Assembly: GCA_963664405.1 (NCBI GenBank)
Contig: OY761158.1
Location: forward strand, 5,952,001-6,016,000
Direction: 5' to 3'
Length of the DNA: 64,000 nt
From: Thermoanaerobaculia bacterium
Lineage (GTDB): Bacteria; Acidobacteriota; Thermoanaerobaculia; Multivoradales; Multivoraceae
Part shown: in pieces, positions 47,377 to 64,000 of the stretch
Numbering within the stretch: the first letter of the stretch is position 1
Layout of the letters: each line of letters begins with the position of its first letter
Made by a program: the position numbers and the translations under genes
The notes under the pieces: model-generated
What the model was told of the DNA's origin: nothing
Database searches by the model: none
What the model saw: only the letters and a program-made list of their open reading frames with translations

Positions 47377-47621
47377 ATGGCCAGAGAAGTGCTGTGGCGA
47401 CAGTTGTTTTGCCGAGGTTGCGGGGTGATGTTTTACATCTGCCGTTCCTGTTATCGGGGGGCAGGTCTACTGCGGGGATGAGTGCCGCCGCCGGATGCGG
47501 CGCAAACAGAGGCGGCGGGCCAACCGCCGCTACCAGCAGGACCCGGAGATTCGGGCCGATCATTGCCAACGCCAGCGGGAATACCGGGAACGGTGCCACT
47601 GGCGACGCTGGGATCTTTGCC
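47377..47621 (+). pseudogene. Third homolog of the IS21-associated Cys-rich ORF, frameshifted and cut by IS256 B
   Basis: MAREVLWRQLFCRGCGVMFYICRSCYRG [extra G in G6 run] QVYCGDEC..ANRRYQQ..H..RQREYRER. Confidence 0.75.
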
Positions 47622-48295
47622 GGCGATGTCCTACTGACTGTTGAAAAGTGACGGTGATCCGTCCCCGATGAGAGATCATCGGGGTGTCATCCAAAACACA
47701 AGGAGGATCACCGTCATGAGTAAGAGTGCCAGAAGGTCGACGAAGAAGAAAGCCGAAGACGAATCCAGCGAAGTTCGGTCTCGAGGTGGGCTGATGGAAG
47801 TCCTGCGAGACTCCCGACTCGCCCTGCGAGAGCTGGTATTGGAAGCGGGCCTTGGAGTGTTCCAGGAGCTGCTTGAGGAGGACCGGGAGCGGCTGTGTGG
47901 CCGTCGCCATGAGCGCTTTGCCGATCGTGAGGCCTACCGTCACGGGCACGACGCAGGGCGGCTGGTGATGGGCGGTCGCCAGGTGCGGATCCGCCGTCCT
48001 CGGGTGCGGAGCAAAGACGGGGTGGAGCTGCGCTTGCCCACGTGGGAGGTGTCAACGGCGCTTAAGAAGCGCGCGATCCCGGCTTTCTGACCGCGTTTCC
48101 TGCTGAGAGTCTCTTCAGCATCATCGTCGCGCGCGAGCGCGCGAGCAGCGTGGCAGGTGGGAGTATGGGGAGACCGGCGGGGGCGACTCCAAGCAAGGTG
48201 ACCGCCCACCGCCGGAAGGCCTGGGGTATGACGCCCCAGAAGAGGGAGTATTCCGCCTGCGGGTGGCGAAGTCCAGGCCGAAGGAGGCCTGGGCC

Positions 48296-48787
48296 GTGCG
48301 CCGCCGTCCCGATTGTCGCCGTTTCGTTTGCGATCGTTGCCGGCAAGCTGTCTACATTTGCTCTTGGTGCGATCGCGGCCATCGTTATTGCACGCCGGAG
48401 TGCCGGGATGAGGCTCGGCGCCACAGCCTTCGCGGGGCCGGGCGTCGCTATCAGCAGACGCCGCGAGGGCGCCGCTTGCATGCTCGTCGTCAGCAGGCCT
48501 ATCGAGATCGCAAGCAGCAAGGCTCAAAGAAAGTGACGCATCACAGTTGCCGCACCGGGGGCTGCCCTGCGACGGTGGCGTCATGGCCCACCGCGCCGCT
48601 TCCGTTGTTTTTGCAAGGCTTGTCCGTTGGAGGTCGGAACGAGGAGCTTCTCTGCAGGCTGTGCCGCCATCCTTGCGAGCCGATTGTCCGCCACGACTTC
48701 TTGCGATCGCGCCGAGTACGCCCGGTGCGCAGGCGGGCGCGGGATGATCTCTCCCGAGCTCGCCGCCGAGATCCGCCGTCTCTATGA
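48296..48787 (+). CDS. Cys/Arg-rich putative Zn-finger protein (IS21 accessory ORF1)
   Basis: CDRC-x6-CSWCDRGHRYC..EC, RYQ..H.RRQ..YR, KVTH, C-terminal CRLC; RBS aaggagg before GTG. Confidence 0.75.
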   Translation: MRRRPDCRRFVCDRCRQAVYICSWCDRGHRYCTPECRDEARRHSLRGAGRRYQQTPRGRRLHARRQQAYRDRKQQGSKKVTHHSCRTGGCPATVASWPTAPLPLFLQGLSVGGRNEELLCRLCRHPCEPIVRHDFLRSRRVRPVRRRARDDLSRARRRDPPSL

Positions 48788-50243
48788 GTCGGAGGGCTGG
48801 CGGCGCAACACGATCGCCCGCCATCTGGGAATCCATCACTCGACGGTCACTCGAGTCCTTCGACGCGAAGGGCTGAGCCGGCCTCGATCGCCGCGACGAG
48901 CGTCCATGGTCGATCGCTTCGTCCCCTTCATCCAGGAAGTCTTTGAGCGCTACCCGGAGCTGCCGGCGAGCGTGCTCTACGAGATGGTCAAGAAGCGTGA
49001 CTATCCCGGTGGGGAGGATCACTTCCGCCACTGCATTGCCGAGCTCGGCCTGCGCCCCCGCAAGGCGCCTGAGGCTTTCTTTGTGCTCCGTACGCTTGCC
49101 GGCGAACAGGCCCAGGTGGACTGGGCTCACTTCGGCACCCGAAAGGTCGATGGCGGAGAGCGCCGTCTCTACGCCTTCGTCATGGTGCTGAGCTACTCGC
49201 GAGCTCTCTTTCTGCACTTCTTCTACGACGCTCGTCTGCCGAGCTTCCTGACCGGGCATGTCCTCGCCTTCTCCTTCTTTGAGGGTCTGGCCAAGATCCA
49301 CCTCTACGACAATCTGCGCAGCGCTGTGCTCGAGCGGCGCCGCAGCGCCATTCGCTTTCATCCACGGCTTCTCGAGCTCGCCGACTTCTACGGCTTTGAT
49401 CCAAGGCCCGTTGCTCCCAGACGAGGAAATGAAAAAGGTCGCGTCGAACGAGCCATTCGTTTTGTCAGAACTTCCTTCTTTCCGCTGCGTCGCACCTGGG
49501 ACAGAGAAGCGCTGAACCGGGACGCTCTGGAGTGGTGTCGCGACCGAGCGATGAAGCGCCCGTGGCCCCAGGACCGGCGTCGCACCGTCGAGCAGGCCTA
49601 TCTCGAGGAGCGCTCTCATCTCGTGAGCCTTCCGGCGCAGCCTTTCCCCTGCCACGAATGGGTCGAGCGGATCACGCGGCGCACTCCTTACCTGAGCTTC
49701 GATGCGAATCGCTACTCGATCCCGCATGATCGCATCGCCCGCTCGCTACAGATCGCCGCAGACCCGGAGCGTGTGCGCATCTTCGATCGCGAGCAGCTCA
49801 TCGCCGAGCACACAAGGTCCTGGGACAAGGGCCAGATCATCGAAGACCCCCGTCACCTAGAAGAGCTGGAACGACAGAAACGCGAGGCACGTACACAGCG
49901 CGGCCAGGACTACCTGCTGCGTACGGTGCCCCAGGCCGAAGAGCTCCTGCGGGAGCTGGCCCGACGGCAGAGACGACTCTCGAGTGCCGTCGCCAGACTC
50001 CTCGAGCTCCTTGCCGAGAGTGGACCCAGGGAGCTTGCAGTGGCGATCGACGAGGCCCTCGAAAAAGGATCCCCGCATCCCGAAGCGGTGCGACTCATCC
50101 TCGATCGTCGGCGCCACGAGCGGGGACTCCTACCCGCGCTGCCTGTCCAGCTCCCCGACGATCCCAGGATCCGGGAGCTCACGGTCACTCCCCATGCACT
50201 GGCCGACTACGACAACCCCAACGACGAGGAGGACGACGAATGA
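48744..50243 (+). CDS. istA: IS21 transposase IstA
   Basis: N-terminal HTH; DDE motifs QAQVDW, YDN and KGRVER. Confidence 0.93.
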   Translation: MISPELAAEIRRLYESEGWRRNTIARHLGIHHSTVTRVLRREGLSRPRSPRRASMVDRFVPFIQEVFERYPELPASVLYEMVKKRDYPGGEDHFRHCIAELGLRPRKAPEAFFVLRTLAGEQAQVDWAHFGTRKVDGGERRLYAFVMVLSYSRALFLHFFYDARLPSFLTGHVLAFSFFEGLAKIHLYDNLRSAVLERRRSAIRFHPRLLELADFYGFDPRPVAPRRGNEKGRVERAIRFVRTSFFPLRRTWDREALNRDALEWCRDRAMKRPWPQDRRRTVEQAYLEERSHLVSLPAQPFPCHEWVERITRRTPYLSFDANRYSIPHDRIARSLQIAADPERVRIFDREQLIAEHTRSWDKGQIIEDPRHLEELERQKREARTQRGQDYLLRTVPQAEELLRELARRQRRLSSAVARLLELLAESGPRELAVAIDEALEKGSPHPEAVRLILDRRRHERGLLPALPVQLPDDPRIRELTVTPHALADYDNPNDEEDDE

Positions 50244-51013
50244 ACAACACCGACCAAGAGCGTGCCACAGCCCTGAAACTCCATGGCCTCCTAGCCCACT
50301 GGGATGAGGTCGCCAACCAACCCTGGCTCCCCGACCTGCTCGACTGGGAAGAGCAGGAGCGAGCCCGTCGCGGACTGGAGCGACGCCTGGGTCGGGCCCG
50401 GCTCGGCACCTTCAAGCCGCTGGCCGACTTCGACTGGAATTGGCCCAAGAAGATCGACCGCGAGCAGATCGAAGATCTCTTTCGGCTCGAGTGGCTCGCC
50501 CGAGGGCACAACGCTGTCTTGATAGGGCCAAACGGCATCGGCAAGACGCTCATTGCCAAGAATCTCGCCCATCAAGCCGTACTACGTGGAGCCACCGCCC
50601 GATTCCTCACCGCCTCGGAGCTGCTCAACACCCTCGCCGAACAAGACTCCTCGACCAGCCTTCAGCGCAAGCTCGCGCTCTTTGCGCGCCCATCCCTGCT
50701 CTGCATTGACGAGCTCGGATATCTGTCCTACGACACGCGCCACGCCGATCTACTTTTCGAGGTCGTTTCCCGCAGGTACGAAAATAAGTCCCTTCTCATC
50801 ACCACAAACAAGTCCTTTGGAGAATGGGGAGAGGTCTTCCCCAACGCTACTACCGTCGTCACCATCGTCGATCGCCTCGTCCATCGCTGCGAGCTCGTCA
50901 ACATCGAGGGCGATTCCTATCGGCTCAAGGAGTCCAAGGAGCACGCCAAGAAGCGCGCTTCGGCCCGCCGAAGCGGCACTCGCCCTCGACGGCGCAGTGC
51001 GAAGACCTCGTGA
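50240..51013 (+). CDS. istB: IS21 helper ATPase IstB
   Basis: Walker A GPNGIGKT, Walker B IDELG, TTNK, DRLVH, SYRL. Confidence 0.95.
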   Translation: MNNTDQERATALKLHGLLAHWDEVANQPWLPDLLDWEEQERARRGLERRLGRARLGTFKPLADFDWNWPKKIDREQIEDLFRLEWLARGHNAVLIGPNGIGKTLIAKNLAHQAVLRGATARFLTASELLNTLAEQDSSTSLQRKLALFARPSLLCIDELGYLSYDTRHADLLFEVVSRRYENKSLLITTNKSFGEWGEVFPNATTVVTIVDRLVHRCELVNIEGDSYRLKESKEHAKKRASARRSGTRPRRRSAKTS

Positions 51014-51363
51014 TCCGACAGGAGTATCGCGCCGAGCTCATCCGCCTCTACCTCGACGCTCCTAAAACCCCGCCTAGACCTCGGCGCCGAGACTGGGCCA
51101 TCGCCGACAAGCTCTATCAAGCCAACGTCCCCCTCGAAGAGCTTGCCCATGCCATTCGACTCGCCACCTTGCGACGGCGCCTCAGCACCGATCCGCTGCC
51201 GCAGATTCACTCACTTGCCTACTACCGCTCCGTACATCGAGCCCTGACCAACGACGAGCTCGACCCTCAATACGTCCGCTACATCCTCCTTCGGCACCGG
51301 TCCCTTCTCGAGGAGGATGAAACCAAAAGCGCCACTACACAGCCGGAATCCCGCACTTTATGA
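51010..51363 (+). CDS. Small helical protein (IS21 accessory ORF4)
   Basis: GTGA overlap with istB; Y....LRLY..P.TP.R...D..I.D.L and I.SLAY motifs shared with 62469-62825. Confidence 0.75.
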   Translation: MIRQEYRAELIRLYLDAPKTPPRPRRRDWAIADKLYQANVPLEELAHAIRLATLRRRLSTDPLPQIHSLAYYRSVHRALTNDELDPQYVRYILLRHRSLLEEDETKSATTQPESRTL

Positions 51364-52538
51364 CCGCCGATAACAGGAGGAGATGCGGGATGAGGATCCC
51401 CTGGAGGAGCGAGCGCTCGAGCAGATGCTTTGCGGGGTAAGCACTCGCAAGTTCGAGCGAAGCCTGGAGCCCCTGCCGGAGTCGGTCGAGTCGGTCGGTA
51501 CGAGCAAGTCGAGCGTGTCTCGTCGCTTCGTGGCCCGCACGCGCCGCCAAGTGGAATCGTTCCTCTCTCGCCCGCTTGGGGATCTGGACCTGCCGGTGCT
51601 GATGTTCGACGGAGTGCATATGGGCAAGCAGCTGTTGATCGTGGGGCTGGGAATCGCCAGCGATGGGACGAAACACGTGCTGGGTGTCGTGCAGGGCGCC
51701 ACGGAGAGCCACCGAGTGTGCCAGGGCCTGCTCAGGCAGCTGATCGAGCGAGGTCTTGTCGTCGAGCGTCGTCGCCTGGTGGTGATCGACGGCAGCAAGG
51801 GCCTGAGCAAGGCGATCTCGAAGACCTTCGGAGCCTGGAGCGTCATCCAGCGTTGTCGAGTCCACAAGATGAGGAACATCATGGACCACCTTCCGAAGCA
51901 CCTGCGTCCGTGGTTCCAGACCAAGATCCGCAGGGCCTGGGAGGCCGACTCACCGAAGAAGGCGGAGGCTCAGCTCCTCGCTCTCGCCCCGCGAGCTCGA
52001 GGAGCAGCACCCGGGCGCAGCCGGCTCTCTGCGCGAGGGCCTCAAGGAGACACTGACCGTGAACCGACTCGGTCTCTCGGGTGCTTTGCTTAAGACTCTG
52101 CGTTCCACCAACCCGATCGAGAACCTGAACGGCTCCCTCCAGCGTGTTGCCAAGAACGTGAAGCGCTGGCGCGGAGGCTCGATGGCATTACGATGGGCCG
52201 TCACGGCTCTCATCGAGGCCGAGCCTCGCTTTCGACGTATTCGCGGCTACCGGGATCTCCACACTCTCGAGCGGGGTCTCTCGGCTCTCATCCAACCGGA
52301 GGTGGACAAGATCGCTGTCAGTGCCTGAGAATCAAACCTGGGTCCCGTCGCTTTTCAACGACGCCTGGGACAACGCCTCTTTGCCAGCCTACCTTTTCAC
52401 CCCATGTTTTCGGGGGTCCCCAATGTGGACTATGTTCTCTCCGGCGCTAACACTTGCAGGTCGATTTGCCCCAGATCGGTGGCGAGGCAGGTACCATTGG
52501 TGGGTTCGTAGGACCCACCCCAAAGGAGGCCAATACCA

Positions 52539-52733
52539 GTGGAAAACGTTAAATTCGAAGTGGTGGATGATAACCGTTTGGTGATTCATGTTGACCTGAA
52601 CCACCGCGGCGACATCAGCGCCTCTGGAAAAACCAGAAGGGTGGCGTCGACTCAGGGTAATATCGGCGTTAAAGATGCGAATGGCGTGGAGGTCAAAATA
52701 GGGCTCAACGTTTACGTCAAACCTAACGTTTGA
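52539..52733 (+). CDS. Small hypothetical protein
   Basis: RBS aaggagg; beta-rich with SASGKT..VAST.GN..IGLNVY. Confidence 0.65.
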   Translation: MENVKFEVVDDNRLVIHVDLNHRGDISASGKTRRVASTQGNIGVKDANGVEVKIGLNVYVKPNV

Positions 52734-52743
52734 CAGCGTTCAA

Positions 52744-52965
52744 CTAACCCCTGCAAGACTCCTGACCTCCCCTGGGTGATGACCGGGTAAGGTTCCGGCC
52801 ATCACCAGGAGCGAGGTCGGGCCGGCCGTCCGAAGTGCGCGGTGGAGCTGACCGGTCCATCTCGGCGGCGGGGCTCGGTATCGCGACGAGGAGGAAGGCC
52901 AGACCCACCATCAGGACGGCGAATCCCGTCGCGGCTCTGATCCCTTTCTGCCAATGCATCAACAA
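52744..52965 (-). pseudogene. N-terminal fragment of a secreted protein
   Basis: Signal peptide plus PRTSDGRPDL, then the sequence breaks off. Confidence 0.45.
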
Positions 52966-52982
52966 CCCCCTTGCCGTTGGGC

Positions 52983-54636
52983 CTACTGCCCGTCAACCGA
53001 GAACGCAAGCAGCACGTTGCCCGTCATGTAGCTGCTGTAGCCCGAGTGCACGTAGAGCATGCCGTCGACGACGGTCGCGCCGGGGCCATTGAGCGAACCG
53101 CCCCGCGCCTTCACCCCGTTCACCGTCTCGTAGTCGCCCACGGTGTCGACATCCCAGATGATCTTGCCCGTGTCGGCGGCATAGGCCCGCAAGTGGCCGT
53201 CGAGGCTGCCCGAGAAGACGACGCCGGGAATGAGGGCCACGGCCGCCGGCTGCGCGCTGTGACATCGCTTCCGCCCGCTGCAGATCCCCTGGACCGGAGG
53301 TGCGTGCCAGACCACCTCGCCGTCGTCGACGCGCAGCGCGACAAGACCGCCCGCCGCGCCGGGCTCCTTCTCCGTGGCGTCGGAGACGGCTACGTAGACG
53401 AGCTCGCCGTCGGTGGCGAAGCCCCACTCGATGCCGCCCAAGGTGCCGCCGGCGGCGACGCGGGTCTGCCAGCGGATCTCGCCGGTGCGCGGATCGAGCC
53501 CGTGCATGAGGCCCGACTTCTGGCCGGCGATGAGGATCGGCTCTCCGCCGGAGGTCGTGGTGAGGACCGGCGAGCTGCCGAAGTCGAAGTCGGGCCCGAC
53601 GTCGGCGGGGCAGTTGGCGCGTACCGCCTCACCGGCGAGACCGCAGGCCTTGTTCCATGCGTCTCCGGCAGTCCTCTGGGTGACCCAGCGCACCGCGCCG
53701 GTGCCCATCTCGAGCGCGATCAACGCGTCGCTCTCTGGAGCCGGCGGATTGGAATAGGAGTTCCCGGTGCCGACGAAGAGGGTGTTGTTTTCGGGGTCGA
53801 GCGTCGGCGCCGACCACACCGCGGCGCGGGCCCCAGCTCCTGGTGCCGACGCGGTTGCGACCGGTAGGCTTCGGCTCTTCGGCGAAGGTGTAGGTCTTCC
53901 AGATCCGCTCGCCCGTCGCCGCGTCGAGGGCGACGACGCTGCCGCGAAAGGTGCAGCACTCGTAGCTCGGGTCGGCCGCCGTTCCCGACTCGATCGAAGA
54001 GACGCCGACGTAGAGGCGCCCGCCGAAAACAGCGGGCGCACCGGTGATCTTGGCGTCGGGATGTTTCTCGATCACCGTTCTCCAGCGCCGCTCGCCGCTG
54101 GCGAAGTCGACGGCGTAGATCGAGGCGGTATCGTCACCGAAGTAGGCGTGGAAGGCGCCTTCGGGTCCGGACGCCACCGAGATCGCCGTGCGCACGCCGC
54201 CCTCCGCCTGGTGGATCCAGTGGATGCACCCGCTCTCGGCGTCGAGCGCGGTAACGAGGCCAGTGCGGCTGCCGACCAGGATGCGGCCCCCGACCACCGT
54301 TGGCTGCGATCCCGCGCGTCCGACGCCAGGGAACCCGAACGCCCACTTCAACCTGAGCTTCGGAACGTCGTCCGCTGCGAGCCCGGCCGCTGCGGCGGGC
54401 TGGAAGCGGGTGTTCTCTAGATCGACACCCCAGCCGTTCCAGCCCGGCCCGCCAAGTGGGTCGCGGGGTATTGCCTCCGCGGCGCAGGTAGCATTCTCGG
54501 GCAGGGGCTCGAGCGACAGCTCGCTCGCGCTCCCCTCCCCATAGAGGCGCTCGCCATCGAGCACGGCCTCTTGCGCAGGGGCCACGGCCGCCAACGCCGG
54601 GACGAAGATGGCCGCGATGGGAATGCGGAGCTTCAT
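52983..54636 (-). pseudogene. PQQ-dependent dehydrogenase, polyvinyl-alcohol dehydrogenase-like, frameshifted near 53830
   Basis: WNGWG..NTRFQ, LKWAFGFPG, YECCTFRGSVVALD, AVWSAPT, GPDFDFGS, GGIEWG and GNVLLAF motifs. Confidence 0.85.
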
Positions 54637-54669
54637 TCGGCATCTCCCCTCTGAGTCATCGGCCTCTTC

Positions 54670-55410
54670 AACTTTATGAGGGCCACCTTTCTCATGGAGC
54701 ACGAACCACGCGCGGTGTCCCTGGGTGTAGTAGTCCTTGACGCGCATTGCCACCACGGCGCCGACACGAGCAAACGAGTAAAAATCATCACGCCGATCAT
54801 TGCGCGATCGCGTAAACCGACAACATGCGACGTGTCGATCGCTTCGAAGAGTTTCCGTGCATCGTCCTCAAACAGGACGGGGGTCTTGCCGACCTTGACG
54901 ACGTGCTTTGGCCCACGCACCGCGGCGGCCGGATTGAAGGGGAGCACCTGGCCCACCACGAGGTAGTCCATGAGCATCCGAATGGCGGCGAGGTTTTGTT
55001 TCACCGTCGTCGGCGATCGCCGTTGACCGAGCTCCTCGATGTAGGCGGCGATGATGATGGGCTCGAGCGTGTGGAGCTCGAGTTTCCGACTCTCACACCA
55101 CTCGAGGAATTGCGAGATCGCGCGCGCGTATGCGCGCCGCGTGTTCGGGTTGCGGATGTTGGCGGTGAAGAATTCCAGAAAGCGTCTCCACGGTCGTAGT
55201 TGCGATTCTGGACGGGATTGAAGGGGAGCACCTGACCCACCACGAGGTAGTCCATGAGCATCCGAATGGCGGCGAGATTCTGCTTCACCGTTGTCGGCGA
55301 TCGCTTGCCACCGAGCTCTTCGATGTAGGCGGCGATGATGATGGGCTCGAGCGTGTGGAGCTCGAGCTTCCGGCTCTCACACCACTCGAGGAACTGCGAG
55401 ATCGCGCTGG
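54670..55410 (-). pseudogene. XerC/D-like integrase fragments with internal duplication
   Basis: EFFTANIRNPNTRRAY, TVKQNLAAIRML, GKTPVL, LRDRA and LHEKGG motifs. 54931-55123 is repeated at 55215-55407; C-terminus absent. Confidence 0.8.
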
Positions 55411-55676
55411 CGATATAGAGACTGATAACGACGAGCACTAGGTGTCCTTCGCATGGCCGCCTTGGCCTTCGGCCTGTCCGCGCACTCGCGGTACCCAAAA
55501 AGGCGAGCGAGCAGGGTAGGGAAAGAAGCGGCCCGTCCTCGGCCTTTCTTATGACCGGCGTCAATAGACGAGACGGGATTCTCTGATAGGCTATCCTGCG
55601 TCGTAAAGTGACCACTCGAGGAGGGGTCGAATGTCAGTCTGGTTGCCTTCGAGTGGTCCAACCCAGGAGAAGGTTA

Positions 55677-58367
55677 ATGCACAGATTGATGTTAGCTCTC
55701 GGAATCTCGATTCTTCTTGCTCCTCCGCTCTTAGCCGACGGCACCCTGACCGGGACCATCCAGGGAACGATCACCAGCTCGGACGGGGAGGCGCTCCCCG
55801 GCACCAGCGTGACGCTCGGGAGCGAGCAAGGCTCCCACGACACCAGGACCGATGCCCAGGGGCAGTACCGCTTCGGTCTTCTCGCACCCGGGCCGTACAC
55901 CGTGACGGCGGAGCTCGAGGGCCTGGGGATGGCCGAGGCCGAGCTGCGGGTCGGGACTGGCCAGCGCCGCACCGTCGACCTCACGCTGCGACTCGCCACC
56001 GCCGGCGAGACCATTCAGGTCGTCTCCGAGGTGCCGCTGGTCAACAAGTACGACGTCTCGACGACGACATCGATGGCGGCCGAGGTCACCGAAACCCTCG
56101 CCTTCGCTTCGCGCAGCTGGCAGTCGGTGCTGACCTCCATGCCGGGGGTGTATCAAAACGCCCGATCCCAGTACTGGTACGACCACCGCGCGGGGGTGAA
56201 CGGCCAATCCTGGCAGGATCTTGGCGGCTTCATCGACGGCGTCGACACTTCGTTCTCCCGCCTCGGCGGCAGCTCCCAGCTGTTTTTGCCCTCCACCGTC
56301 ATATCCGAGGTGCGGATCGAGGGCTCGGGGTATACCGCAGAGTACGGCAGGGTCACCGGAGGGATCGCCAACGCGATGGTGAAGTCGGGCACCAACCGCT
56401 TCCACGGCGACTTCCGCTACATCCCCCAGAGCCAGAAGTGGCGCGCCGAGTACGACGCGGTGCCGCTCCCCCGGAACGACGAGATCCAGAACAGCTACGA
56501 GACCGCCCTCGGGGGACCGATGGCGCGGGACAAGGCGTGGTTCTTCGTCTCCTACTCCGAGGACACGGAAAACGTACTCGCCGCCACGGGTGACCAAACC
56601 CCCGTGGACAGTAGCAACCAGGGCGAAGTGGCCTTGGCGAAGCTGAACTTCCAGCCCGGCTCGAGTCACAGCTTCTACGTCATGGGAATCAACGCTCCCC
56701 ACACCTTTCGCAGCCTTTCCAACCCAAACCGCTTCGATGTCTTCTCGGTTCCGCACCAGGAGGTCGACCAGGAGCTCGCGATGGCGAACTGGAACTGGAC
56801 CGTGAGCTCCAACATGTTCCTCGAGACCCGCGCCGCCGCACACAGGGCCGTCTTCGACCGCAGCCAGCTCGTGACCAGGACCGCCGACCCGAATGCCAGC
56901 CCCGATGATACGGCGGGGAACGTCGGCGCCTACTGGGACCTGAACTCCGGCTTTCGGCGCCTGGCCATCGCCAGTCCGCTCGGCACCGGTCAGCGCTATT
57001 ATCCTCGTAATCAGGCGAACTCGGCCTTCAGCCTGTTCGCCGGCGTGCACGAGCTCAAGTTCGGAGCCGACTGGCAGGTGGTGAACTGGGAGACGCTCAA
57101 CAACGTGCCCGACCGCTACCAGGGCAGGAACTTCGACGCCAACGCACCTGGGGGGTTCGAGGTCCCCGTGCGGAAGCGGGTGTACCTGCCGTCCGCGGGG
57201 CTCATCGAGACCGAGTCAACCGCCATCGCCCTCTTCGTCCAGGACCGTCTCTCCTGGGGCGATCACTGGTCGATGACGGTGGGTCTGCGGGTGGAGGACC
57301 AGGAGCAGAAGAATGACATCGGGGACGTCGCGGCCTCCTCGACCGACCTCGCCCCCCGGCTGGCGGCGGTCTACGACGCCAGCGGCAACGGACGGCTCCT
57401 CTTCAAAGGGACGGTGGGCCGCTACTACCATCACATCGCGCAGGAGGTCGTGAACGACGAGTTCACACGAAAGCCCAACGGCGTCAACGCCTACAACGAG
57501 TTCGGGTGGAACTCTGCGACCGGGCTGTACGACATATTCCGGCGCACGCAGATACCGGCGCTCGATACCCTGATCACCGACATCAATCCCTACTACAAGG
57601 ACGAGGTCACCCTGGGCGTAGAGTGGCAGTTCTCTGACCTGTGGGCGTTCAAGGCCCGGGGCATCTTCTGGGACCATGACGACCTGATGTGGCCGAACGA
57701 CCAATTCGCCCCGGACGGCAGCGTCTTCCGGCTGGTCGCCAACTACCCGGAGGGCCAGCGCGAGTACCAGGGGCTGCAGCTCGAGCTCAACCGGAGCTTT
57801 CGCAACAACTGGGTGGTCCGGTCGAACTACACCCTGGGCCGTTCCGAAGGCAACCTGTGCTGCCGCAACGACGACGACAACCCCTTCCTCGAGGGCAAAA
57901 CGGTCGTCGATCCGGTGAGCGGCATCCCGCTGACCGCGATCAACTACTTTGGCCGCACCGGCGACGACCGCGAGCACGTGCTGAACCTCTCCGCCAGCCG
58001 CACCTTCCAGCTCGGCAACCATTCGCTGAACCTCGGCGGTTTCTTCTGGTTTCGCAGCGGCGAGTGGTGGGGTAGGACGGAGAGCACGACACTTCGCCAT
58101 CCTTCCGGGAGCAGCATCCGCTCCACCACCCGTCCCGAGCCCCGCGACGCCAACCAGATGCCCGACCTCATGTCCCTCAACATGACGCTGGGGTGGCACT
58201 TCCCCCTCGGCAGCGTGCTCGAAGGATCGCTACGGGTCGAGGCCGCGAACCTCACCAACGAGCAGGAGTCGATCAGGATCAGCACCTCCAGCGGGCGAAT
58301 AACCCCAGTTCCGACGAGCTACCAGGTGACGAGGGAGTACCGCTTCGTGGCCGGGATCCGGTTCTAG
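55677..58367 (+). CDS. TonB-dependent receptor, Oar-like
   Basis: Signal peptide, carboxypeptidase regulatory-like domain, AEYGRVTGG..KSGTNRFHG, terminal GIRF. Confidence 0.9.
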   Translation: MHRLMLALGISILLAPPLLADGTLTGTIQGTITSSDGEALPGTSVTLGSEQGSHDTRTDAQGQYRFGLLAPGPYTVTAELEGLGMAEAELRVGTGQRRTVDLTLRLATAGETIQVVSEVPLVNKYDVSTTTSMAAEVTETLAFASRSWQSVLTSMPGVYQNARSQYWYDHRAGVNGQSWQDLGGFIDGVDTSFSRLGGSSQLFLPSTVISEVRIEGSGYTAEYGRVTGGIANAMVKSGTNRFHGDFRYIPQSQKWRAEYDAVPLPRNDEIQNSYETALGGPMARDKAWFFVSYSEDTENVLAATGDQTPVDSSNQGEVALAKLNFQPGSSHSFYVMGINAPHTFRSLSNPNRFDVFSVPHQEVDQELAMANWNWTVSSNMFLETRAAAHRAVFDRSQLVTRTADPNASPDDTAGNVGAYWDLNSGFRRLAIASPLGTGQRYYPRNQANSAFSLFAGVHELKFGADWQVVNWETLNNVPDRYQGRNFDANAPGGFEVPVRKRVYLPSAGLIETESTAIALFVQDRLSWGDHWSMTVGLRVEDQEQKNDIGDVAASSTDLAPRLAAVYDASGNGRLLFKGTVGRYYHHIAQEVVNDEFTRKPNGVNAYNEFGWNSATGLYDIFRRTQIPALDTLITDINPYYKDEVTLGVEWQFSDLWAFKARGIFWDHDDLMWPNDQFAPDGSVFRLVANYPEGQREYQGLQLELNRSFRNNWVVRSNYTLGRSEGNLCCRNDDDNPFLEGKTVVDPVSGIPLTAINYFGRTGDDREHVLNLSASRTFQLGNHSLNLGGFFWFRSGEWWGRTESTTLRHPSGSSIRSTTRPEPRDANQMPDLMSLNMTLGWHFPLGSVLEGSLRVEAANLTNEQESIRISTSSGRITPVPTSYQVTREYRFVAGIRF

Positions 58368-59803
58368 GTCTTAGAGGAGCCAGCCGCCAGTCTCGAAAGG
58401 AGGACGAGAAGCTCGGGGTCTCCGAACGACTAGCGCGACCCGAGTGCGAGCGCTTCTCGCCGGTCTCGCAATCGACCGCCACCAGGCTCTCCGCAAAGAG
58501 GTTGTCGCCGAGGAGTTATTGTCAAATGTTGGGTACGGGGGCATCAGGCGGCGATGGTTGATGGATGTTCTCCGTCGACGAACTGGACTCCCCCGACAAC
58601 TTCAGCGAGATGGTGGAACCCTCTGAGTCGTCGCCATCGTTTCTCGGCACTCTGAGTGAGCTTGAAGACCATGGTGAGCATGGTCTCTCGCGACAGACAT
58701 CCCCTGGTCTTGGCAGTGCGAAGACGGACGGTGGCGAACGTCGATTCGATGGGATTGGTCGTTCGGAGATGAGGCCACTGCTGGCTGGGAAAGTCGTAGA
58801 AGGCGAGGAGCTCGTCCCGGTCTTTAGTCAGGCACTCGGCGGCTCGCGGGTACTTCGCTTCGTAGGTCTCTACGAAGGCATCGAACGCCTCATAGGCTTT
58901 CGCCCTCGTCTCCGCCTGCCAGATCTCGTGCAAGGCCTTCTTCGCCTTGGGCTGCGTCGACTTCGGCAGGGAGTTCAGGACATTCCCGGTCTTGTGCATC
59001 CAGCAACGCTGGGTGCGGGTGTCGCCGAATACCTTCGTGATCGCCTTCCAGAAGCCCAGGGCACCATCCGCGACCGCCAACTTGGGCGAGACGGCTACGC
59101 CGCGGTGCTTGAGATCCATCAAGATCTCCCGCCAAGACTGCTCGCTCTCGCGATAGCCCTCCTGAACCGCCAAGAGTCGCTTCTTGCCCGTTTCGTCAGC
59201 GCCGATCAGCACCAGGAGGCATAGCCGGGCGTCGTCGAAGCGGACGTTGCAGTAGATCCCGTCGGCCCACAGGTAGACAATCTGCTGGCGACCCAGGTCG
59301 CGCTTGGACCAGCTCTCGAATTCCTGGAGCCAGTCCTTCTTCAGCCGGCTGATCGTGGAGGCCGACAGACCCTTCGCGTTGGGCCCAAGCAGAGCGCTGA
59401 GTGCCTCACCGAAGTCGCCCGTCGAGATGCCGCGCAAGTACAGCTGTTGATGGCTGCGAGAAAGCGCATCCCGTTGGCTGCGAGCGCAGTTTCCGGGATG
59501 GAGTGAGCTGAGGGCTTCGCGACCGCGGGAAAGCTAGGCCTTCTTCAGGAAGGGCGGCATCATCCCGCCGGAACGGCGGTCCGGGTGCGTGGTCCCGGCG
59601 GCGTGTTTGCGGTCGGAAGAGATGCGTGAGTCGGTGTAGGGCTTTGCAGTGCGGGCTCTGCTCTGATAGAGCAGGCCGACCAGAGACGGCGAGAGCCCGG
59701 GAAAGCGAAGTAGAAAACGCCCCGGGCTCTGCCCCAAACCGCAGCATTAGCTGCGCTTGCAGTATGGCAGAGAGTCGGGGTCGTCGTCGAATGGGAGGCG
59801 ACG

Positions 59804-60199
59804 ATGCGACCGGACTACCGACTCTTCGACTGTGCTCGATGCCGTCGGCGTATCTCGCTGTGCTCGCACTGTGACCGTGGCCAGCGTTACTGCCGGGCTT
59901 GTGCTCTGGTGGCTCGTCGGGAATCGACTCGGGCGGCCGGCCATCGGTACCAGCGAAGCCTCCGAGGTCGGCATTGTCATGCCGCCCGTCAGGCCCGCTA
60001 CCGTCGGCGCCAGCGCGAGCGGGCAGAGAAAGTGACGCATCAGGGTACCCCAGGCGGTACTTCGGGGAGGACACTGTGTCGGATCGAGACTCCGAGGCGC
60101 GAAGTGCGCTACGACCCGAGGAATCCGCGATGCATGCAGTGTGGAGAGGCCTGCCGAGAGTTTGTGCGAACGAGCTTTCGTCGTTGCCGACGGAGATAG
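59804..60199 (+). CDS. Cys/Arg-rich putative Zn-finger protein (IS21 accessory ORF1)
   Basis: CARC-x6-CSHCDRGQRYC..C, RYQ..H..RQ..YR, KVTH, C-terminal CMQC; RBS ggagg. Confidence 0.78.
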   Translation: MRPDYRLFDCARCRRRISLCSHCDRGQRYCRACALVARRESTRAAGHRYQRSLRGRHCHAARQARYRRRQRERAEKVTHQGTPGGTSGRTLCRIETPRREVRYDPRNPRCMQCGEACREFVRTSFRRCRRR

Positions 60200-60203
60200 G
60201 GGC

Positions 60204-61712
60204 GTGATCGACGCACAGCTGCGCGGGGAGATCCGTCGTCTGTTCCTGGTCGAGAAGTGGAAAGTCGGCACGATCGCTCGACAGCTACAGCTGCACCCCT
60301 CAACCGTGCGCCGGGCGCTGGAGAAGTCCGGCGTGCTACCCCAGCAGCGACGAGGGAGGATGATCGATCCTTACCTGCCGTTCATCGAGCAGGTGCTCGG
60401 GACCTACCCACGACTGCCGGCGAGCCGTCTCTACACCATGGTGGTGGAGCGCGGCTATCCAGGAGGCCCGGATCAGTTTCGCCACCTGGTGGCCTCGATG
60501 CGACCGAAGCCCCAGCGCGAGGCGTTTCTCTCGCTGCGCATGCTGCCAGGAGAGCAGGCGCAGGTCGACTGGGGCCACTTCGGTCGGCTCCGCGTCGGCC
60601 GGGCACATCGTCGGCTCTATGCCTTCGTCTTCGTGCTGTCGTTCTCGCGCACGGTCTTCGTGCACTTCACCCTCGACACTCGTCTCGAAACCTTCTTGCA
60701 CGCTCACCAGCTGGCCTTCCACTACGTCGACGGCGTCGTCAGGACCGTTCTGTACGACAACCTGCGAACCGCGGTGATCGAGCGGCAGGGAACCGCGGTG
60801 CGCTTCCATCCCGTGCTGCTCGATTTCGCCAGCCACTACGGCTTCCTTCCCACCGTCGCCGCGGTGGCTCGGGGAAATGAGAAAGGCCGCGTCGAGCGCG
60901 CAATCCGCTTCCTGCGAAGCTCGTTCTTCGGCGCCCGAACGGTGAGCGATTTGGATCGTCTGAATCGGCAGGTCCTGGAATGGTGCCAGAGGTCGCAGCG
61001 CAGACCCTGGCCGCAGGACCGACAGCGAACCGTGAAAAGCGCCCTGGCCCAGGAACGACCTCGACTGCTTGAGCTTCCCGGAGACGACTTCGAAACCGAC
61101 CTGCGACTGGAGATCAAGGTCAGAAAGACGCCGATCGTGCGCTTCGACCTCAACGACTACTCGGTGCCGCACAGTCATGTGCAGAGGACCGTCACGCTCC
61201 TCGCCAGCGAGCATCGGGTGCGGATCCTCGATGGCCAGGAGCTCCTCGCCGAGCACCCTCGCTCGTACTCCCGGGGCGAGCAGATCCTCGATCCTCAACA
61301 CCTCGAGGAGCTCCTCGCTCACAAACGCAGGGCCCGACGACACCGGGGCTTCCATCGGCTGTTTTCCGCTGTGCCTCGATGCGAAGAGCTGATGCAGCAG
61401 CTCGCCGAGCGAGGCGAGAACCTCGGAACGCAGACCGCCGGCCTGCTCCGACTCCTGCGCCAGTACGGCCCCCAGCGACTCGACAAAGCCGTGCGCGAAG
61501 CGCTCCTGAACCACGCACCGCGATTCCAGTCCGTCCGGCTCCTACTCGAACGGCACCAGCGCGGCCTCGGTCAGCCCCCGGCTTTACCGGTGCCGCTCAG
61601 CCAGGAGCTCCAACAGCGAGATCTCTCCGTGAGACCGCACAACCTCGAGGACTACGACCAACTTGGAGGCAACGACGATGGCCCGACCCAGGAAGAGTCC
61701 AACGATCCCTGA
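60204..61712 (+). CDS. istA: IS21 transposase IstA
   Basis: HTH; QAQVDW, YDN and KGRVER motifs. Confidence 0.93.
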   Translation: MIDAQLRGEIRRLFLVEKWKVGTIARQLQLHPSTVRRALEKSGVLPQQRRGRMIDPYLPFIEQVLGTYPRLPASRLYTMVVERGYPGGPDQFRHLVASMRPKPQREAFLSLRMLPGEQAQVDWGHFGRLRVGRAHRRLYAFVFVLSFSRTVFVHFTLDTRLETFLHAHQLAFHYVDGVVRTVLYDNLRTAVIERQGTAVRFHPVLLDFASHYGFLPTVAAVARGNEKGRVERAIRFLRSSFFGARTVSDLDRLNRQVLEWCQRSQRRPWPQDRQRTVKSALAQERPRLLELPGDDFETDLRLEIKVRKTPIVRFDLNDYSVPHSHVQRTVTLLASEHRVRILDGQELLAEHPRSYSRGEQILDPQHLEELLAHKRRARRHRGFHRLFSAVPRCEELMQQLAERGENLGTQTAGLLRLLRQYGPQRLDKAVREALLNHAPRFQSVRLLLERHQRGLGQPPALPVPLSQELQQRDLSVRPHNLEDYDQLGGNDDGPTQEESNDP

Positions 61713-62472
61713 CGAACCACTACGAGAGCTCGCCCGATCCCTCGGCTTCTACGCCCTCGTCGACGACTGGGGCACCTACCGAGAACAGCCCTGGCTCGAA
61801 CAGCTGCTGCGCAAAGAAGAGGCCGAGCGCAAACGGCGCAGCCTCGAACGGCGCATCCGCACCAGCCGCGTCGGGCTCTTCAAGAGCATCGCCGACTTCG
61901 ACTTCTCCTGGCCCCAGCGCATCGACCGCGAGCAGATCCAGGATCTGCTCACCCTCCAATTCCTCGACGACATCACCAACGTCATCCTCCTCGGACCCAA
62001 CGGTGTCGGCAAGACCATGATTGCCAAGAACCTCCTCTACCAGGCGCTGCAACGAGGGGCCACCGCCAGCTTCGTCACCGCCTCCGACATGCTCAACGAT
62101 CTCGCCGTCCAGGAAACCCCCTCGGCGCTCCAGAGAAGGCTCTCCAAATACACCCGACCCTCGCTTTTGGCAATCGATGAGCTCGGCTATCTCTCCTACG
62201 ACCACCGCCACGCGGATCTCCTCTTCGAGGTCGTCTCCAGGAGATACGGCAACAAGCCCATTCTTCTCACCACCAACAAGCCCTTCGCCGAATGGGCCGA
62301 GGTCTTTCCCAACGCCTCCTGCGTCGTCACTCTCGTCGATCGACTCACCCACCACGCCGAGATCGTCAAGATCGAGGCTAACTCCTATCGCCGCAAGGAG
62401 GCCAAGGAGGCTGCTGAAAAAAAGGCCAAGGACCGCGCCAAAAGGCGGAGCGCAGCACGACGACGCTCATGA
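61678..62472 (+). CDS. istB: IS21 helper ATPase IstB
   Basis: GPNGVGKT, IDELG, TTNK and DRLTH motifs. Confidence 0.95.
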   Translation: MARPRKSPTIPDEPLRELARSLGFYALVDDWGTYREQPWLEQLLRKEEAERKRRSLERRIRTSRVGLFKSIADFDFSWPQRIDREQIQDLLTLQFLDDITNVILLGPNGVGKTMIAKNLLYQALQRGATASFVTASDMLNDLAVQETPSALQRRLSKYTRPSLLAIDELGYLSYDHRHADLLFEVVSRRYGNKPILLTTNKPFAEWAEVFPNASCVVTLVDRLTHHAEIVKIEANSYRRKEAKEAAEKKAKDRAKRRSAARRRS

Positions 62473-62825
62473 CCCGAAGCCACTATCGGCGCCAGCTCCT
62501 CCGCCTCTATCGACTCCTTCCCGACACCCCGCACCGCTTCCACCACGGCGACCGCGTCATCGTCGACCAGCTCTTCGACCAAGACCTGCCTCTCACCGTC
62601 CTCCAGGCCGCCCTCCTCCTCGGCTCCGCCCGACGCGCATGCCGAGATCCGCGCCTACCAAAGCTCCAGCCCATCCGATCCCTCGCCTACTTTCTCCCCA
62701 TCCTCCGAGAACTCCCCACGACGCCACCCCCCGAGGGGTACCTCGACTATCTGCGCCACACCCTGAGTCACGCCTCGCGGGGACAAAAAACCGACTCGCA
62801 GCCAACTAAGTGCGCTTTCTCGTAG
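62469..62825 (+). CDS. Small helical protein (IS21 accessory ORF4)
   Basis: ATGA overlap with istB; homologous to 51010-51363 (IRSLAYF, YLDYL). Confidence 0.78.
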   Translation: MTRSHYRRQLLRLYRLLPDTPHRFHHGDRVIVDQLFDQDLPLTVLQAALLLGSARRACRDPRLPKLQPIRSLAYFLPILRELPTTPPPEGYLDYLRHTLSHASRGQKTDSQPTKCAFS

Positions 62826-64000
62826 CCGGTAACAACAGCAGCGGAAGCAGCTCCTCGATGCTCTTGGACTTGCGAAGGTAGCGCGGCACCAGTTTCGACT
62901 CGAAGCGGATCGGCTCCTCTGTCTCACCCCGGTCCCGCACTCGCGGGACTCGCACCGGGACGTCGCCGATTCCAGTCTGAATCGACCGCTCCGGCAGATG
63001 CCCGTTGCGCACCAGCCTCTGTCTACCGGCTGAGTCGCGCTCCTCTGCGTAGTGCTCGAGCAGCTCGCCCACTTCCGCCTCGACCGCCACCCGGAGCAGC
63101 TCCTGGGCTCCTTGTCGCAGCACCTCGGTCAAGGCGTCATCCACACTCGCTGTACCTGGCTCTCTGAAGCGCTCTGCGTTACCCTGAACCACGGCGTATC
63201 CTCCTTCTCCGGAAGGTCCCAAGGTCGTTGAACAACCTCAGGATACGCCGCCTTCAAACCTCCTCATACACAACTTTCGACCATAGCTCGTCGCCGAGTC
63301 GGTGGCCGCCGTAAAGGTCGTTGGTCGGTGTGCTGATCGGCAGATAGGCGAGGCCGAGCTCTTCGTCGACAGCGATCATCGACCACACACATTGGTATTA
63401 CCCGTGTACTTCCAGGACTCGTTCTCCCAGGTCTCGCTGCCCTCCTCTCCCTGCTGCGGATGGTGTGAAAGACCCACGCCAGGGCGCCGCTCTCGGCATC
63501 GTAGGCACGCACGAAGCTCGGCGGCCCCCCCTGGTGGGTGACGCCATCGGAAACGATCGAGCCCACGATCACCGTGTCGCGGCAGATCGCCGCCGGCGAG
63601 CTGTGCGTCGTTCGGGACTCGAGGATCTTGCGGCCCAGGTCTTTGGTCATCTCCACCGCGCCGTGCTTGCCGAAAGTGGGGTCGGGCCTGCCGGTCATGG
63701 TGTCGAGAGAGAGCAGGCGACGGTCATGTGTGGCCATCATCACGCGTTGTTTTGTGCCCCTGTGCCAAACCGCCACGCCGCGATGCTGAAAGCCCTCATT
63801 CGCTGGCCGCCCCGCCTCCCAGCTCTGCGGGTCGTAGCTCCACAGCGGCTTGCCCGAGGTGGCGTCGATCGCCGCCACCTGACCGAGGGGCGTGCTCACG
63901 TACATGCGCCCGTCGATCACCACGGGAACCGCCTTGAACTTGAAGGACCCCAGGCGTATCGCTTCCGGCAGGTTCGGAATCTGGCCGTCGACCGACTCCC

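Follow-up and report, generated by a model that had tools for sequence, protein, structure and literature searches.

A clade of IS21-family insertion sequences in which two further conserved genes accompany istA and istB

Canonical IS21 elements are described as carrying two genes only, istA and istB. In Tn7-like and Tn5053-like transposons, tniQ lies directly after tniB/tnsC, and in IS1 the zinc-finger protein InsA is encoded upstream of the transposase, can be fused to it, and keeps transposase expression low. We analyzed a stretch of 64,000 nucleotides from a Thermoanaerobaculia bacterium (phylum Acidobacteriota; GenBank assembly GCA_963664405.1, contig OY761158.1, positions 5,952,001 to 6,016,000), hereafter the window, in which two insertion sequences, E1 (48050-51375) and E2 (59445-62834), each hold a small Cys-rich gene ahead of istA (open reading frame 1, ORF1) and a gene for a small helical protein behind istB (ORF4). 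Like the canonical elements IS21 and IS5376, E1 and E2 encode an IstA with a helix-turn-helix (HTH), a DDE core, and a beta-barrel, and an IstB that is an AAA+ helper; istA and istB overlap, and the TGT...ACA ends carry repeated motifs and adjoin short target duplications. They differ in the two conserved genes added inside the ends, in their length of ~3.3-3.4 kb, and in having an IstA clade of their own. A structural paper on IstA-IstB from 2024 describes, in the portion consulted, the two proteins alone (PMC11208146). We find that E1 and E2 belong to a distinct, widespread, currently active IS21-family clade with four tightly coupled genes, and that ORF1 and ORF4 are very probably functional, selected parts of the element rather than cargo.

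E1 is 3326 bp long, has TGT...ACA termini, and is flanked on either side by GGAGG (left copy 48045-48049, right copy 51376-51380); E2, of 3390 bp, lies between two copies of ACAGC (left 59440-59444, right 62835-62839). The terminal inverted repeats match at 28 of 40 positions in E1 (48050-48089 on the + strand and 51336-51375 on the - strand) and at 32 of 40 in E2 (59445-59484, +, containing GGCTGCGAG twice, and 62795-62834, -). A BLAST search of both elements against their own genome (6.78 Mb, single contig) returned 21 full-length copies of E2 with at least 99.94% identity, plus broken copies, and six copies of E1 with at least 99.97% identity plus one with 94.9%. Together these 28 full copies end exactly at the boundaries given here, and 25 of them have perfect 5-bp duplications (18/21 for E2, 7/7 for E1), in line with the first-pass annotation, made from the letters of the window alone, which had described E1 and E2 as IS21 elements with inverted repeats and 5-bp duplications of their own. 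Because an intact, uninterrupted copy of the target is present elsewhere in the genome for 11 of the 28 insertions, the boundaries are also fixed independently. E1 and E2 have recently transposed as whole units. The E2 copy at C1:2646767-2650158 of the same genome sits within a copy of E1 and is flanked by a perfect duplication, CCAGG.

The gene order ORF1-istA-istB-ORF4 is the same in both elements, with all genes co-oriented (+ strand of the window). In E1, ORF1 (48263-48787, with its likely start at GTG 48296 behind GAAGGAGG) encodes a Cys-rich basic protein, and its end overlaps by 44 nt the start of the DDE transposase gene istA (48744-50243; rve, Mu-transpos_C_2, NF033546), which is followed by the AAA+ helper ATPase gene istB (50240-51013; IstB_IS21, 3.6e-60; NF038214) and by ORF4 (51010-51363), a helical protein of the form that we call type A. 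In E2, a non-coding leader (59485-59803) runs from the left repeat to ORF1 (59804-60199, 131 aa); istA (60204-61712) starts at a GTG 4 nt past the ORF1 stop, with GGAG at 60192-60195, istB (61663-62472; IstB_IS21, 1.8e-62) starts at TTG 61663 or ATG 61678, and ORF4 (62469-62825) encodes 118 aa with five predicted helices. The coordinates place istA in the +1 frame relative to ORF1 in E1 and E2 alike. In each element the ORF4 start and the istB stop share 4 nt (GTGA in E1, ATGA in E2), and both ORF4 stop codons lie inside the respective right terminal repeat, as had been noted at first pass. IstA also matches HTH models, with 1.5e-23 for Mu-transpos_C_2 and 233 bits for NF033546 (cut-off 160), and IstB reaches 218 bits against NF038214 (cut-off 200). 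An IstA with HTH, DDE core, and beta-barrel, an IstB directly downstream, and inverted repeats with duplications are thus all present as in IS21; since there are four conserved genes, not istA and istB only, we file E1 and E2 as a variant subgroup of the family.

The two elements had been called clearly diverged carriers of the same two extra genes, and they are: DNA similarity is limited to patches of istA and istB (66-71%), and the proteins are 40% (ORF1, E 1e-16), 35% (ORF4, 2e-8), about 50% (IstA), and about 60% (IstB) identical. Judged by sequence, E1 and E2 are old relatives. RNA contigs from runs X20-X22 match short pieces of istA and istB only, among them one exact 247-nt contig that equals 62084-62330, and touch no part of ORF1 or ORF4; because such contigs cannot show absence, we draw no conclusion from them on ORF1 or ORF4 expression. 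A structured RNA in the long E2 leader was considered and dropped, there being no Rfam match, a fold z-score of -1.88 (with 4 of 100 shuffles folding as well), and no nucleotide similarity of the E1 or E2 leader to other loci.

The four-gene arrangement recurs well beyond this genome. A scan for ORF1 with one genome per species gave 399 confirmed stretches, 80 of which were kept as a genome set; several of these loci are copies of one element, and their lineages are not independent. By their record titles they come from Acidobacteriota, Beta-, Gamma-, and Alphaproteobacteria, Planctomycetota, Myxococcota, and Verrucomicrobiota. A scan of metagenomes seeded with an alignment of ORF1-ORF4 fusion proteins (described below) gave 490 confirmed stretches and a second set of 80 loci. 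ORF1 is followed by istA in 71 of 72 assessable genome loci and in 63 of 74 assessable metagenome loci. In the lone exception among the genomes, L073, the gene immediately after ORF1 codes for an IS110-type transposase (L073:5487-6677, - strand), and further transposase genes crowd the surrounding stretch. A fourth gene stands after istB in 53 of 54 assessable genome loci, its start overlapping the istB stop by 4 nt in 51 of the 53, and a type A ORF4 follows istB in 62 of the 63 metagenome loci that have istA (4-nt overlap in 53 of the 62). The fourth gene takes two forms in the genome set. Type A, as in E1 and E2, encodes 113-118 aa and is found at 11 loci; type B, at 42 loci that are mostly proteobacterial, encodes 63-82 aa with a conserved helix and a C-terminal Pro-Phe. 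This terminus, present in 18 of 20 aligned proteins (L022:7678-7896 and 19 further loci), looks in sequence like a short docking motif. We tried types A and B as distant relatives and rejected this (hhalign probability 0.2%).

The same association is visible from the side of the transposase. Within a 151-genome sample of the window's phylum, an NCBIfam model identified 29 IS21 transposase loci (excluding one more from an unpublished genome), four of which have ORF1 upstream, and the IstAs of those four are the closest to the window's. Across the sample, 40 genomes have an IS21 transposase, 12 a member of the ORF4 family, and 10 one of the ORF1 family; these tallies include the window's own genome and one unpublished genome, G049. 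A maximum-likelihood tree of 67 distinct IstAs, built by a quick search and with several long outgroup branches, separates 57 ORF1-linked from 10 ORF1-less sequences by a single change, at a split with a Shimodaira-Hasegawa-like approximate likelihood-ratio test (SH-aLRT) value of 98; 19 ORF1-less loci with fewer than 380 residues aligned to the query were left out of it. Type A elements lie at the base, and a nested group of 48 rows (SH-aLRT 85, weak) carries type B wherever the fourth gene can be assessed; in one member, L032, it runs off the contig. The tree shows the ORF1-linked IstAs as one clade, which is what the first-pass annotation had proposed checking along with gene order.

ORF1 and ORF4 are two unnamed protein families with reach beyond IS21. 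Neither matched a family in Pfam (E up to 1) or NCBIfam, the sole ORF1 row there being a sub-threshold SAP match on E1 ORF1 (E 0.049). The Cys and Arg motifs described for ORF1 at first pass are invariant columns across 32 homologues, in an alignment that also has invariant Tyr and His, and the ORF4 alignment has invariant Asp, Arg, Ser, and Tyr columns. ORF1 has at least 232 homologous protein clusters, all of them "hypothetical protein" at best; a full profile search for ORF4 gave 1635 representative clusters, 893 of them at E 1e-10 or better and mostly 100-170 aa long. PDB sequence profiles returned chance rows only for both proteins, PHROGs a single sub-threshold row (phrog_26310, unknown function, E 0.055, on E1 ORF1), PADLOC nothing, and a protein atlas search unnamed clusters only. 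TniQ was unmatched in Pfam at E up to 10 in 23 ORF4 relatives, and no DnaD-like domain of ORF4 was matched in Pfam. Existing annotation often passes over these genes: in 13 of 18 PLSDB plasmid records the ORF1 match lies under no annotated feature (the gene table being incomplete), and on RefSeq plasmids from Methylotuvimicrobium, Burkholderia thailandensis, and Aromatoleum, ORF1 is unannotated or only partly called, with the type B gene listed as "hypothetical".

Fold models are confident for both proteins and point to no convincing structural relative. The ORF1 model (mean predicted local distance difference test score, pLDDT, of 82) has two beta hairpins bearing the first Cys pairs, a long basic helical hairpin (residues 31-75), and a C-terminal Cys knuckle with a short strand; the ORF4 model (pLDDT 88) has five helices. 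Foldseek against the PDB returned no ORF1 match, no ORF4 row reached an E below 1.5, and a wide fold search with ORF1 gave no lead (best Z 4.3, 2oee_B, root-mean-square deviation [rmsd] 2.4, 43 residues aligned). The structural neighbors of ORF4 are mostly C-terminal helical subdomains of AAA+ proteins (best 3thg_A, Z 7.1, rmsd 3.2, 80 aligned), and it can be superposed on TnsC (7mbw_A, Z 5.3, rmsd 4.9, 108 aligned) and on the DnaD-domain proteins 2i5u (Z 5.6, rmsd 2.5, 66 aligned) and 2zc2 (Z 5.4, rmsd 3.0, 71 aligned), all in a range common for unrelated helical bundles. With Z at most 7.1, this likeness is within the noise of such bundles, and we treat the modeled resemblance as a lead only.

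Both extra genes are maintained by purifying selection. Between E1 and its 94.9% copy, the ratio of nonsynonymous to synonymous substitution rates (dN/dS) is 0.37 for ORF1, 0.11 for IstA, 0.15 for IstB, and 0.36 for ORF4. In a survey of four-gene metagenome loci, 22 pairs that do not overlap give medians of 0.26, 0.11, 0.07, and 0.18 in the same order, and dN/dS is below 0.5 for ORF1 and ORF4 in every one of the 22 pairs. By these estimates ORF1 and ORF4 are real genes under purifying selection that evolve faster than IstA and IstB, which bears out the third check proposed at first pass.

A fourth proposed check, complex prediction, gave a result for ORF1 and IstA. From alignments made here, and taking the median of three runs with three controls alongside, the ORF1-IstA pair scores 0.67 vs 0.00 for the best control, a mark reached by 58 of 80 solved complexes and by 2 of 110 mismatched pairs. 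The runs share at least 92% of contacts, with a partner pLDDT of at least 71. The predicted interface joins ORF1 residues 3-16, 103-106, and 119-124 with IstA residues 180-217 and 289 and leaves the basic hairpin free. This IstA stretch falls between two invariant residues of the alignment, Asp185 and Glu231, which we take to be the second Asp and the Glu of the DDE motif. Across the 57 clade members, IstA residues 193-203 and 215-218 hardly change, whereas they vary in the 10 ORF1-less IstAs, and neighboring residues such as Asp185, Asn186, and Val191 are conserved in both groups; because the outgroup is small and divergent, this clade-specific surface is supportive, not decisive. On the ORF1 side, the FVR strand of the interface is present in ORF1s linked to istA and missing from ORF1-like domains unlinked to it. 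The model supports binding of ORF1 to the IstA catalytic core.

Natural fusions of these proteins occur. In P0157 and P0155 a complete ORF1 reads straight into IstA, P0157 being a 658-aa protein with six member sequences and rve and Mu-transpos_C_2 domains. In P0173, P0183, P0192, and P0218 an ORF1-like Cys domain is fused ahead of an ORF4 domain; these four ORF1-ORF4 fusions have 246-283 aa and are 47-54% identical to one another.

The two genes are near-constant companions of istA and istB, yet both the ORF4 and the ORF1-like families also occur outside IS21 elements of this kind. In an ORF1-less IS21 from a different genome (L128:1096-1800 and L121), the gene after istB encodes a winged helix (HTH_24, 9.4e-5) fused to an ORF4 domain, and one more distant IS21 has a free ORF4 after istB. 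The window's own genome holds a third repeated element that is not IS21 (C1:537658-541220, or L224:259-3821; ~3.56 kb, five copies). Its four genes specify a Cys-rich HTH_23 protein, a transposase (rve), an ATPase (AAA_22), and, overlapping the stop of the ATPase gene, an ORF4 homologue. The first of these genes was compared with ORF1 and rejected as a relative. The ORF4 domain therefore follows two different transposition ATPases, IstB and AAA_22, and time and again its partner, either in the same chain or in the same operon, is a small domain of DNA-binding type.

At 12 metagenome loci an ORF1-like gene is directly followed by, or fused to, ORF4 with no istAB between; 11 of these are among the 74 assessable loci, and L197 is too near a contig end. 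A tyrosine-recombinase homologue was detected within ~20-60 bp after the pair in L144, L145, L148, L149, L150, and L157, and also in L158 (L148 and L149 are one region in two samples, 98% identical), and both recombinase genes of a pair are visible in L144, L148, and L149 (Phage_integrase 7e-27 and 1.1e-23 in L148, where the arrangement spans L148:231-3336). Larger proteins, the first of which matches Phage_integrase, follow the pair in L209 and L211 (98.8% identical), and an IS110-type transposase adjoins it in L146 and L147 (L146:2485-3741, +), in an arrangement kept at 75%. L158 and L180 retain an istB fragment between ORF1 and ORF4, and this persistence hints that their pair descended from a four-gene IS21 by deletion. 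A lone ORF1-like gene of 150 aa stands in the window's own genome without an adjoining transposase (C1:1147878-1148264; L225:1367-1819), next to a gene that by eye resembles a Ser/Thr kinase; the fused ORF1-ORF4 gene of L146 is likewise beside a kinase-like gene.

What, then, do ORF1 and ORF4 do? The first-pass annotation had suggested working parts of the transposon rather than chance cargo, and linkage, the IstA clade, purifying selection, and the ORF1-IstA prediction all point that way. It is true that many long spurious frames overlap the region on both strands, as expected if the extra genes were chance frames of G+C-rich sequence or decaying cargo; but the homologues, which number in the hundreds, share invariant columns of Cys, Arg, and Tyr, all 22 pairs have a dN/dS far under 1 for both genes, and the folds are confident (pLDDT 82 and 88), which makes this extremely improbable. 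The reading that we prefer, with a probability of roughly 0.55, is that ORF1 and ORF4 are accessory subunits controlling assembly, activity, or target capture of IstA-IstB. ORF1, which is zinc-ribbon-like, would dock with its Cys module and C-terminal strand on the clade-specific surface of the IstA catalytic core and leave its basic helical hairpin free to hold DNA; ORF4, a small helical adaptor made in step with the IstB ATPase, would work with ORF1, and together they would tune how the IstA-IstB machine assembles, acts, or captures its target. Zinc binding, DNA binding, the physical contacts, and an effect on transposition are steps that we infer. Several points weigh against this assignment. 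The mechanism is computational throughout, and the ORF1-IstA contact is a model score only. The lower conservation of the interface in the ORF1-less group is partly expected, that group being 10 rows from one phylum with long branches, and 53 of the 57 rows in the clade had been collected by way of ORF1. Fusions of ORF1 to IstA are rare (6 longer matches vs 232 free-standing homologues), and some may be sequencing errors. Fold searches with ORF1 and ORF4 gave weak matches only. Most proteobacterial members carry an unrelated fourth gene, so that type A ORF4 is not required by ORF1. ORF1-like and ORF4 genes stand before tyrosine recombinases without IstA or an ATPase, and hence the pair cannot act only through IstA and IstB. 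Finally, the earlier proposal of target selection specifically is unsupported, because no target consensus is visible among the 28 flank pairs of the E1 and E2 insertions; about half of these insertions are within or next to other repeats, a pattern that could reflect tolerance of such sites and not a preference for them.

The strongest competitor, although we consider it unlikely, is that the main job of ORF1, alone or together with ORF4, is to regulate genes: as a small DNA-binding repressor acting on the element ends or promoter, it would keep transposase low and would be no subunit of the transposition complex. A small, very basic, Cys-rich protein encoded by the first gene of an operon would suit this role, as would the better conservation of the E1 leader (2 changes in 213 nt) than of ORF1 (59 in 483) between E1 and its 94.9% copy, and the same module ahead of unrelated recombinases fits a generic regulator. 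Such a regulator is harder to reconcile with the predicted docking on a clade-specific surface of the IstA catalytic core and with in-frame ORF1-IstA fusions, and it leaves unexplained why ORF4 is coupled to two kinds of ATPase gene; that E2 has no promoter-like site (0 in a scan for sigma-70 consensus sites only) counts weakly in the same direction. Somewhat less likely again is a portable module whose job is independent of transposition chemistry, for example at the host replication machinery or in protection or maintenance of the element; various mobile elements would have acquired it for the advantage it brings. ORF1-like genes with ORF4 and no istAB at 11 of 74 assessable metagenome loci, the tyrosine-recombinase homologue just downstream in seven loci, ORF4 in the rve + AAA_22 element, the lone ORF1-like gene of the window's genome, and the weak fold likeness of ORF4 to the DnaD-domain proteins 2i5u and 2zc2 all speak for independence. 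Against it stand the fixed split placement of the two genes around istAB and their translational coupling, the ORF1-IstA prediction and fusions, and the lack of a match in defence or phage family libraries. A bolder extension of the accessory-subunit reading, which we regard as less likely than not, is that ORF1 and ORF4 are two halves of a portable adaptor recruited whole, split, or fused: a Cys-rich, DNA-holding half would dock on the recombinase and a helical half would work with the transposition ATPase, the recruiting elements, which differ in mechanism, being IstA-IstB, rve + AAA_22, and tyrosine-recombinase pairs.

These possibilities can be set beside the accessory proteins of other transposons. 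Like tniQ, ORF4 lies directly after an AAA+ ATPase gene, and its domain is joined to an ORF1-like Cys module or a winged helix. Modular target selectors are described in PMC10293859, and the domain combinations of ORF4 parallel them. Unlike TniQ and TnsD, ORF4 has no Pfam match, TniQ included, is ~118 aa long, and goes with no site preference in 28 insertions. ORF1 resembles InsA of IS1 in being small, Cys-rich, and basic, in lying upstream of or overlapping the transposase gene, and in its rare in-frame transposase fusions, but no sequence relation to InsA was found in Pfam or NCBIfam. The likeness of ORF4 to AAA+ lid subdomains and DnaD is one of fold only, at Z values within the range of unrelated helical bundles, and is accompanied by neither a Foldseek nor a sequence match. 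We found no description of the ORF1 or ORF4 genes in the literature, in a search to which ISfinder and paper supplements, which may bear on novelty, were external.

Around the two elements, the window has further mobile and repeated sequence. E1 splits a Mutator-family transposase gene on the + strand (upstream part 47641-48049, downstream part 51381-52093; Transposase_mut 2.2e-30), and E2 splits a second one on the - strand (downstream part 58544-59444, upstream part 62835-63222; Transposase_mut 9.7e-50 and 1.3e-07). Just upstream of the gene split by E1 lies an ORF1-like remnant (47459-47596, +; hidden Markov model E 1e-6) without the first Cys pairs, in a region that is single-copy in the genome. 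A 198-nt direct repeat of 92% identity (54931-55128 and 55215-55412, 284 nt apart) falls in a stretch where the minus strand has two frames that resemble each other, 54633-55004 and 55001-55615, the first without a Pfam match. Also on the minus strand, frames 52983-54041 and 53629-54756 overlap, and the first matches PQQ and beta-propeller models; the two (52983-54756) may be one dehydrogenase-like gene broken by a frameshift. The genome as a whole is very repeat-rich: the sequence adjoining two E2 copies (C1:1930195 and C1:449310) has ~95 near-identical copies, and an 826-bp repeat (C1:1144000-1144826) has ~30 (27 listed).

IS21 serves as the structural model for AAA+-helper-dependent transposases and has been described as a two-protein system. 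A large natural clade across five phyla by record titles (Acidobacteriota, Pseudomonadota, Planctomycetota, Myxococcota, and Verrucomicrobiota) nearly always has two more proteins under selection, one of them predicted on the catalytic core, which raises the question of what extra subunits add to the IstA-IstB machine. Should the portable adaptor prove true, IS21 would have in it a first dedicated factor for assembly or target capture, with the part that TniQ plays in Tn7-like elements. Current annotation misses both families. That their members turn up in several kinds of transposon points to a shared accessory function in bacterial mobile DNA, one that has gone unrecognised.

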